Source: a virus (lineage: Duplodnaviria; Heunggongvirae; Uroviricota; Caudoviricetes). Taken from it: DNA of 22,963 nucleotides. Position numbers: made by a program. This document shows, piece by piece, positions 21,001-22,963 of the stretch; within the stretch, counting starts at the first letter, position 1, and each line of letters opens with the position of its first letter. Location of the stretch: positions 1 to 22,963 of the IMG/VR virus record IMGVR_UViG_2802429249_000003. One strand, given 5' to 3'.

Positions 21001-22963
21001 TTTTAATTTATGCAGTTTTGCCTTCATACGCTAAAAGTGCCGTTATTGGTTTACTACTACTGATTGGAGTTGTAGAACCACCAACATTAAGAACCATGTT
21101 AACTGTAAGAATGATGCTAAAGCTAAACAGCCATCACGAATACATATCCTCATAACTAATTGATAATCATGTTAGTTTTAACCAAATTCTATAAATAGAC
21201 AATGTCTTTGGCAAAAATCAGACTTTCTACGAGAGTCGAGACAGACAAAACTTCCGCTTTTCGCTCATAGTGGCCGATCAGGTCAGGTTTTGTGTGATGC
21301 CTGCGTCAGGTCAAATTTGATTTAAAAGCAGAGTAAAAGGGGCAATGAGCCCCTTTTGTTATCAAAGAATTAAGCTATGAGCTGACTTGTACCGAAGTTA
21401 CGATAACTGTCATTGACATCTTTGCTGTACGTTTTTGCCAGGTAAGCAACCCGTAGCAAGAACTCACAATAATCAGGGCTTAACGTTAACGCATCATACC
21501 GGGTGAACCAAGCGCTGTGATTCTTGGGGAATTGAACTCGACTTGCATAGTAAGGATAATCAAGCCCAATCGCACTGCACCAGGCTTTCTGTATCCGGGT
21601 CCCCATATTATCAGCGTCAGGGTTAGTATAATCTCCCAGATAACCGTAAAAGTCTTTGTTGAACAGTAGAACCAGATGGTAGTGATGATGCTCACTGGTA
21701 TTACGTTCTCTGGTCCAGATATAGCCAAGTGGTGCAGGCTTACCAGCCCGACTTGAGCGTTTATGTTCTTCCCGTAGCTGGCTTTTCAGTGATTCTATAG
21801 CCCGAGTGATGGCTTTCTCATCATCTTTCTGAAAGCAGGTCGGCATATCTGGCTCATTTGGCACATGGGACTGCGCAAATCGAAAATCAGCCCGTAACGT
21901 GAATATCCGTTCATGTTTCTCTGAATAGTTAGATGTCACTTCGAGTGATCTACGGAGCATATAACCTGATATCGGGGAGTCATATTTATCCTTTGCTGTC
22001 TGTTGGAGGAAATCAAACTCTTTTTCAGTAAAATTATACGGTAATTTCATAATATGTATTCACTGGGTAATGGGTAGCCGATAGCTACCCAGATTATTGT
22101 GGGGATGATTTAATAGTGGTTATAGGGGCCCTATTGCAGTAGCTTAACCTTGGCTACTAGTGTTTATGGGTTTGTTTTACATGTATATTTATAACTGGTA
22201 CATGCACTGCAACAGATCGACATATATTACATATACCGACGAATAAAAGCTGAGAATAGCTTTACTCGAAGCAGTTCAAACCACAGCCAGCCAGGGAATC
22301 ACACCAATGCAACTCATTGATAAAGCATAAAAATTACTCTGAAGTTATTCTTCCAGTGGTATACTGCTAAATACACTACCCCCACCCTGATATACTGGTC
22401 TGCCTGACATCATATTGTGTTTTGCATCCAGCACTGAAGGCACCATTTCGAAAGCAAGATATTTGACGTAATGCGTCCCTCTTTCATCCTCCCATAACTG
22501 GATTTTCCCTTCGTCAGAAAGCTGTTCCAATACAGGTACTAGACGCGCTTCTTTTCTGAGGGAACTGGGACCATTCTGCATAATTCCACGCCGGTTAAAA
22601 TCATAGGATCCATTTCTGACAAGATGACTTTCAAACCAATTAAGTAGCATTTCAGTATCGGAAGGCCCCATTACGGCATCCATTTTTACTATAAAATGAT
22701 TAAGGTACCATTCCGATATTAACAGTGCAGACTCCAGTGTTTCTAACGTAATTATGGATGAGTTAGGAGTAATATATACCTGCATCACAGCAGCAATCCT
22801 GGCCGTATGTTCAGTGTACCGTGCTGCCCAGTCGTTATAATGGTACAGTTTTTTTCCAGGCTCCATTAGATATTTTATCTTCTTATCAATATCATATAGA
22901 CGTTTCTTTGTAGTGGCATAGTGAATTTGGCCACCTGAATAGAGGTGATATCATCACCTCATA

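Follow-up and report, generated by a model that had tools for sequence, protein, structure and literature searches.

The perfect 8-bp inverted repeat at 22942–22960 lies within the left end of an IS911-like insertion sequence (IS) of the IS3 family, which is inserted in a yfjI-like gene. A hairpin is conserved at this place among relatives of the element, and the comparison of their sequences suggests that IS911 and its relatives carry a conserved leader fold that would tie transposase translation to the start of the transcript. The repeat is present as the initial annotation described it, and ends 3 bases short of the end of the window (the whole stretch of 22,963 nucleotides that was analysed), whose last bases are ...TAGAGGTGATATCATCACCTCATA. 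The features of this region are listed in Table 1, with IS positions counted from the left end of the element.

Table 1. Features at the junction of the yfjI-like gene and the IS, in window coordinates.
Feature	Position	Strand	Details
yfjI-like (DUF3987) 3' remnant	22345..22908	-	Equivalent to residues 322-508 of a 508-aa YfjI; cut at the IS junction
IS3-family, IS911-like IS left end, first 55 bp	22909..22963	+	100% identical to Citrobacter plasmid and E. coli IS copies
Left terminal inverted repeat (IRL), 36 bp, TGTAGTGG...TAGAG	22909..22944	+	IS 1-36; 36-bp extent taken from IS911
Predicted -35 (TTGGCC) of the element's own promoter, pIRL	22927..22932	+	IS 19-24; consensus scan
CCACCTG, predicted 5' strand of lower stem	22931..22937	+	IS 23-29, in IRL; minimum-free-energy folds
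5' arm of repeat, GAGGTGAT	22942-22949	+	IS 34-41; Shine-Dalgarno-like; holds TG of predicted extended -10
Predicted extended -10, TGATATCAT	22946..22954	+	IS 38-46; spans stem top and loop
Loop of repeat, ATC	22950-22952	+	3 nt, between the arms
3' arm of repeat, ATCACCTC	22953-22960	+	IS 45-52; exact reverse complement of GAGGTGAT

The insertion sequence and the interrupted yfjI-like gene

The last 55 bp of the window were matched in 75 E. coli genomes and in 176 plasmids from Klebsiella, Escherichia, Vibrio, Yersinia and other genera, and many of these matches are 100% identical. The matches are short unannotated stretches on both strands; since such scattered short matches are the signature of a mobile element, the sequence from 22909 onward was assigned as the end of one. 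Both E. coli YJ3 and a Citrobacter plasmid have, 18 bp after the match, the start of a gene annotated as "IS3 family transposase, programmed frameshift". The full element, as found in the Citrobacter plasmid copy (L001 3003-4258), is 1256 bp long and extends from TGTAGTGG... to ...CCACTACA. It contains orfA (Pfam HTH_Tnp_1) in frame 0, orfB (Pfam rve) in frame -1 and a slippery site for frameshifting, A AAA AAG, and it matches the NCBIfam IS3 transposase model NF033516 with 303 bits against a cutoff of 160. The orfA start is at IS 74 and its Shine-Dalgarno sequence, AGGTGA, at IS 64-69, outside the window. This evidence for orfA and orfB comes from beyond the window and is linked to it by the 100% identity of the 55 bp and by a sister contig, which runs 72 bp past the window end and into orfA. 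Thus, the transposase gene that the initial annotation proposed to look for in the extended sequence lies just past the edge.

OrfA is ~72% identical to that of copies in Shigella, and near-identical E. coli copies of that Shigella element are called IS911 by PGAP. No specific name for the present element was found in PGAP or PLSDB, which give only "IS3 family transposase" or nothing. When the right end of the IS is reverse-complemented, the IRL agrees with it at 23 of 36 positions; the termini are TG...CA, as is typical of the IS3 family, and the partner of the IRL is located ~1.2 kb away at the other end of the IS. The 36-bp terminal repeats of IS911 are the transposase-binding site (PMC2909936). 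The inverted repeat studied here occupies IS 34-52, 33 bases inside the left end, and straddles the inner edge of the IRL, whose last three bases (GAG, IS 34-36) it includes.

On the other side of the junction, the remnant translated from 22908 was aligned by BLASTP to a 508-aa E. coli YfjI-family protein with 68% identity over 187/187 residues, and the alignment starts at the first codon adjoining the IS. Homology to E. coli yfjI at the DNA level stops at 22910, with the closest E. coli DNA being 75–81% identical. The Pfam DUF3987 match in the remnant covers profile positions 287-359 of 364, i.e. only the last part of the domain. The IS interrupts the yfjI-like gene at about codon 322, within an integrative island. 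Upstream of the listed open reading frame (22345-22866, minus strand), the frame is not closed until two in-frame TGA codons, which lie within the repeat, inside the IS. The initial annotation had placed the repeat about 80 bp upstream of the last gene. The distance is correct for the ATG at 22866, which is 76 bp away, but this ATG is an internal methionine of the truncated yfjI-like gene, whose homology extends to 22908. The proposed tie between the repeat and this gene does not hold, as only the 3' part of the gene is left, on the opposite strand and across the IS boundary; it should be annotated as a yfjI pseudogene that has been truncated. In public assemblies, a 193-aa "DUF3987" gene is called at 22345-22926 (minus strand), with an apparent ATT start codon that lies within the terminal repeat of the IS. 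Such an open frame joins IS and yfjI sequence, and it is preferable to treat it as a pseudogene.

The window corresponds to the entire contig PTSK01000046.1 of assembly GCA_002965205.1. Contigs of related assemblies carry the identical yfjI/IS junction, so the insertion is real and common to them, and these contigs break 77 or 127 bp into the IS, with the longest entering orfA. From this we infer that the contig stops where assemblies commonly break, at a repeated IS, and not because of a feature of the locus. The 3-bp left flank of the IS is CTT, and the source assembly has the right junction on another contig. The 3-bp flanks of the Citrobacter plasmid copy differ (GTT, L001 3000-3002, versus GAC, L001 4259-4261) and show no target-site duplication, which suggests later recombination between copies. 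At the left contig end, the heptamer CTGGTCG is repeated perfectly in tandem, 11.9 times (window 1-83), and the array runs off the contig.

Several other features of the island were observed. Two adjoining tyrosine-integrase genes are present (12061-14864), one with a lambda-type arm-binding domain and one of P4 type. The P4-type integrase adjoins smpB in sister genomes (compare L003 8172-10677) and has a prophage-like block (DUF4222, DUF5406) beside it here instead, which suggests tandem integration at one and the same site. A search of the window for a tmRNA or tRNA gene found none. The gene at 15134-17932 (plus strand) encodes a 932-aa AAA_22 and SEC-C protein with weak N-terminal matches to the LmuA, HamA and DUF4297 defence proteins. 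The 296-aa (18380-19270, plus strand) and 309-aa (20018-20947, minus strand) proteins have no match in Pfam (precomputed), NCBIfam or PADLOC; the island cargo between 15134 and 20947 may be an uncharacterised defence module. Perfect 8–9-bp hairpins that resemble terminators are located at 19344-19365, ~75 nt beyond the stop codon of the gene for the 296-aa protein, and at 21335-21357, just past the stop of a YagK/YfjJ (inovirus Gp2-type) gene. A third perfect 8–9-bp hairpin (22071-22091, TGGGTAGC-cgata-GCTACCCA) is present between the start of the Gp2-type gene and the yfjI remnant.

Conservation of the hairpin and the predicted RNA fold

The window contains 11 perfect 8-bp inverted repeats with 3–8-nt loops, versus 2.3 in dinucleotide shuffles; with a 3-nt loop only, the numbers are 3 and 0.39. 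The exact pattern of the present repeat, with up to three mismatches, was found in 11 of 100 shuffles. One such repeat in 23 kb, taken alone, is within chance, and whatever significance it has comes only from its conservation in relatives.

The repeat overlaps a predicted promoter. A scan of 300 bp around the IS end gave a single sigma-70-like site, TTGGCC-16-TATCAT preceded by TG, and nearly all relatives have the TGnTAnnnT pattern, with few exceptions (e.g. L083 and L084). Judging from the position of the -10, transcription from pIRL, presumably a weak promoter, would start at about 22961 (IS 53), right after the 3' arm; the starts of both pIRL and the circle-junction promoter (pjunc) used below were derived from hexamer positions. 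An intrinsic terminator was considered for the repeat and rejected, as the stem is followed by ATAGTCAAAAC and no T run, and a terminator scan was empty at the site. Rfam covariance models gave no match at E ≤ 1 for the whole IS and its flanks.

Relatives of OrfA were gathered from reference genomes (80 loci) and metagenomes (80 loci), and 88 distinct left ends with a GAGGTG-type stem, IS911 included, formed the comparative set. In these left ends, 97.4% of the upper-stem cells form standard pairs, and the whole two-stem structure described below is paired in 81.0% of cells, versus 29–41% when the 3' partners are slid. Both sides of a pair are changed in 43 cells, compared to 23.5±3.4 in shuffles, none of which (0/500) reached as high a number. 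Variants of pair 40:47 include C:G (9), U:G (9) and U:A (6), and those of pair 37:50 are G:C (80), G:U (5) and A:U (2). The near-identical L026 and L086 differ by a double change, from C:G to U:A.

The homologous hairpin of IS911 proper is GAGGTGA-TATGC-TCACCTC. About a dozen more divergent elements lack GAGGTG...CACCTC and have another hairpin at the same place, always around the -10, for example TATGCT-AATA-AGCATA or TGTTATGA...TCATAGCA. In these elements the fold is still two-tier; the upper stem is another one, and the lower stem is compensated (CACCCA:TGGGTG). Additionally, the 3' arm is far better conserved than the adjoining spacer, IS 53-62. The presence of different hairpins at the same site, together with the compensatory changes, therefore indicates that hairpin potential, and not just sequence, has been selected. 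Much of the pairing is invariant and thus uninformative, because CCACCT (in the transposase-binding repeat), GAGGTG (at the repeat edge and extended -10) and AGGTG (the Shine-Dalgarno sequence) are each constrained for other reasons. The excess of G·U over A·C single changes (23 versus 2 events) was rejected as proof of a sense RNA; with a pyrimidine-rich 3' arm and a frozen 5' arm, most transitions give G·U anyway, so that the excess does not discriminate RNA from DNA.

Some relatives contain tandem left ends, spaced 60, 43 or 28 bp apart (L028 1463-1600, L112 285-420 and L100 110-230). In L112, the second left end starts right after ...GAGGTGATAT, within the hairpin loop of the first copy. 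IS911 tends to insert beside sequences that resemble its own ends, and the tandem left ends fit this preference.

In the sense RNA, IS 21-80 is predicted to fold at -17.5 kcal/mol (z = -2.98), with the repeat as the upper stem. The repeat itself does not contain the orfA Shine-Dalgarno sequence, and the predicted sequestering is done by the lower stem, in which CCACCTG pairs with CAGGTG (IS 63-68, outside the window). When 55 relatives were folded, the Shine-Dalgarno sequence paired with IS 21-32 with a median probability of 0.95–0.99, and the upper hairpin formed with a probability of ~1.0. Pair 29:63 of the lower stem (columns 29:65 in alignment A1 and 29:66 in alignment A2) is GC in 49, AU in 26, GU in 6 and other in 7 left ends. 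The median probability that the Shine-Dalgarno sequence is unpaired, taken over the relatives folded in each case, is 0.04 for read-through RNA (with 60 nt of upstream flank), 0.03 for RNA from IS 1, 0.01 for RNA from IS 21, and 0.43 for RNAs that begin past the hairpin.

The contribution of each strand was followed by deletion in silico. Upon loss of the 3' arm only, CCACCTG pairs with the 5' arm and the Shine-Dalgarno sequence is freed (0.54 here, 0.37 in IS911); loss of CCACCTG frees it as well (0.53 here, 0.44 in IS911). Removal of the whole hairpin, with both arms, leaves the Shine-Dalgarno sequence sequestered, and the hairpin is therefore thermodynamically dispensable for sequestration. 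RNAalifold on the alignment returned four upper-stem pairs and an invariant GTGGC:GCCAC pairing within the IRL instead of the lower stem, so the lower stem rests on the named-structure counts and the single-sequence folds. A further pairing in the minimum-free-energy fold of this copy, between the tip of the IRL (IS 6-21) and the start-codon region, was rejected, with covariation at or below that of shuffles.

Proposed role of the leader fold and alternative explanations

From the folding predictions and the covariation, we consider it probable that the hairpin caps a two-tier RNA structure that limits transposase translation of RNA entering from upstream. Sense RNA starting upstream of the repeat, by read-through from the flanks and probably also as pjunc transcripts of the circle junction, would form the 8-bp hairpin. 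The hairpin would compact the 33 nt that separate the two strands of the lower stem, and would tie up the Shine-Dalgarno-like 5' arm, which may otherwise compete for CCACCTG. The CCACCTG bases of the IRL would then cover the CAGGTG of the orfA Shine-Dalgarno sequence. Transcripts from pIRL, starting at about IS 53, would be without both stems and still translatable. The net effect would be that transposase translation is set by the start of the mRNA and that the element is shielded from outside transcription. The accepted role of pjunc in IS911 is to boost transposase; because pjunc mRNA starting at about IS 21 would also be damped, the proposed structure sits awkwardly with that role.

A more general form of this proposal can be offered only tentatively. 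The first 70 nt contain CACCT and AGGTG motifs in alternation, four in all (in the inner part of the IRL, in each of the two arms and at the Shine-Dalgarno sequence), and these might constitute a conserved translational gate, common to the IS911 clade, that senses the 5' end of the mRNA. Such a gate would act on outside read-through and circle-junction mRNA alike. If so, the junction promoter, a strong one, would come with a translational damper of its own or with a 5' stabiliser. The accessible IS911 papers do not mention such a layer of regulation.

The initial annotation had suggested an operator, and the repeat does overlap the predicted -10, on which its dyad is centered. A dimeric protein (OrfA, OrfAB or a host factor) could bind this palindrome and repress pIRL, as OrfA of IS2 binds beside an extended -10 pIRL and represses it (PMC3299598), and symmetric half-sites would likewise yield apparent covariation at 40:47. 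An operator is nevertheless unlikely, since relatives with 64–75% identical OrfA swap the palindrome entirely for the substitute hairpins given above and keep the hairpin potential in place. The half-site sequence is not kept in the L068, L100, L116 and L158 classes, whereas the hairpin is. Furthermore, the motif is missing at the right end, where the same protein must bind too, and a nested lower stem with compensated changes, whose Shine-Dalgarno strand is ~30 nt away, is sensible only in RNA.

That the hairpin has some other task in RNA, as a 5' stabiliser of junction mRNA, as an RNase III site or as a mask of the 5' arm only, seems to us improbable as well. A stem near the 5' end is a geometry known to protect mRNAs, and a start near IS 21 would place the two-tier stem within 3 nt of the 5' end; masking of the 5' arm is also seen in silico. 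Against such tasks, sequestration of the Shine-Dalgarno sequence is predicted consistently, in 55 of 55 relatives, and L068-type elements, which are without a Shine-Dalgarno-like 5' arm, still keep the hairpin.

There is rather little chance that the complementarity is functionless, an inherited by-product of overlapping constraints (the GAG edge, the TG of the extended -10 and the discriminator). Such an origin would agree with the invariance of most stem positions and with the chance expectation for a single perfect 8-bp repeat in a 23-kb window. It is disfavored by the compensatory double changes at 40:47 and 37:50 and the excess of both-side changes over shuffles, by the other hairpins at the same site in divergent elements, and by the conservation of the 3' arm relative to the spacer.

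Finally, it is most improbable that the repeat is a mobile-element terminus with a partner, or a regulatory site of the last gene: it does lie within the terminal 55 bp of the IS, and to that extent the initial annotation was partly right about an element terminus, but the element ends 33 bp off, at 22909, the terminal inverted repeat is IS 1-36 (TGTAGTGG...TAGAG), the partner repeat sought by the initial annotation is absent (no GAGGTGAT or ATCACCTC with up to one mismatch near the IS right end, L001 4200-4258, or elsewhere in the window, and no other copy of the motif in the IS), and the adjoining open reading frame, cut short and on the opposite strand, is outside the IS.

Relation to known insertion sequences

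The closest known system is IS911, a member of the IS3 group and the model for copy-out/paste-in transposition. Both elements have TG...CA ends, a ~36-bp IRL containing TTTGGCCACCTGAA(C/T)AGAG, orfA and orfB with an A AAA AAG site, a right-end TTGACC placed to form a junction promoter, and a homologous hairpin at the same position. They differ in that OrfA is only ~72% identical, and that the stem has 7 bp and a 5-nt loop in IS911 and 8 bp and a 3-nt loop here. A full-text search of the accessible IS911 literature found no description of this hairpin.

The predicted layout of pIRL, abutting the inner end of the IRL, resembles that of IS2, in which a weak extended -10 pIRL is located directly inside the left repeat and a junction promoter is built from both ends (PMC3299598). 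In contrast to the present element, the regulatory site of IS2 is a protein-binding sequence, TAAATAA, and not a palindrome around the -10.

Leader folds that occlude the ribosome-binding site in mRNA for the transposase, as predicted here, are established for other insertion sequences. In the fold-back inhibition of IS10 and IS50, the leader of read-through RNA folds over the ribosome-binding site, while the element's own promoter fires inside the structure and its transcript escapes. A left-end stem-loop sequesters the Shine-Dalgarno sequence in IS200 (PMC4513863), and a structure in the 5'-UTR blocks the ribosome-binding site in ISPpu9 (PMC8450116). The likeness to IS10 and IS50, by prediction and covariation, extends to a left-end pairing with one strand over the transposase initiation signals. 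The present element differs from all four in that the repeat is a nested upper hairpin and the lower stem would do the sequestering. The repeat is thus an ordinary feature of a common IS and of a broadly known kind, and the conserved leader fold is modestly interesting. Control of this sort is known from other insertion sequences, so the gain is incremental; if confirmed, the fold would add a post-transcriptional layer to the known control of these elements by promoter assembly.
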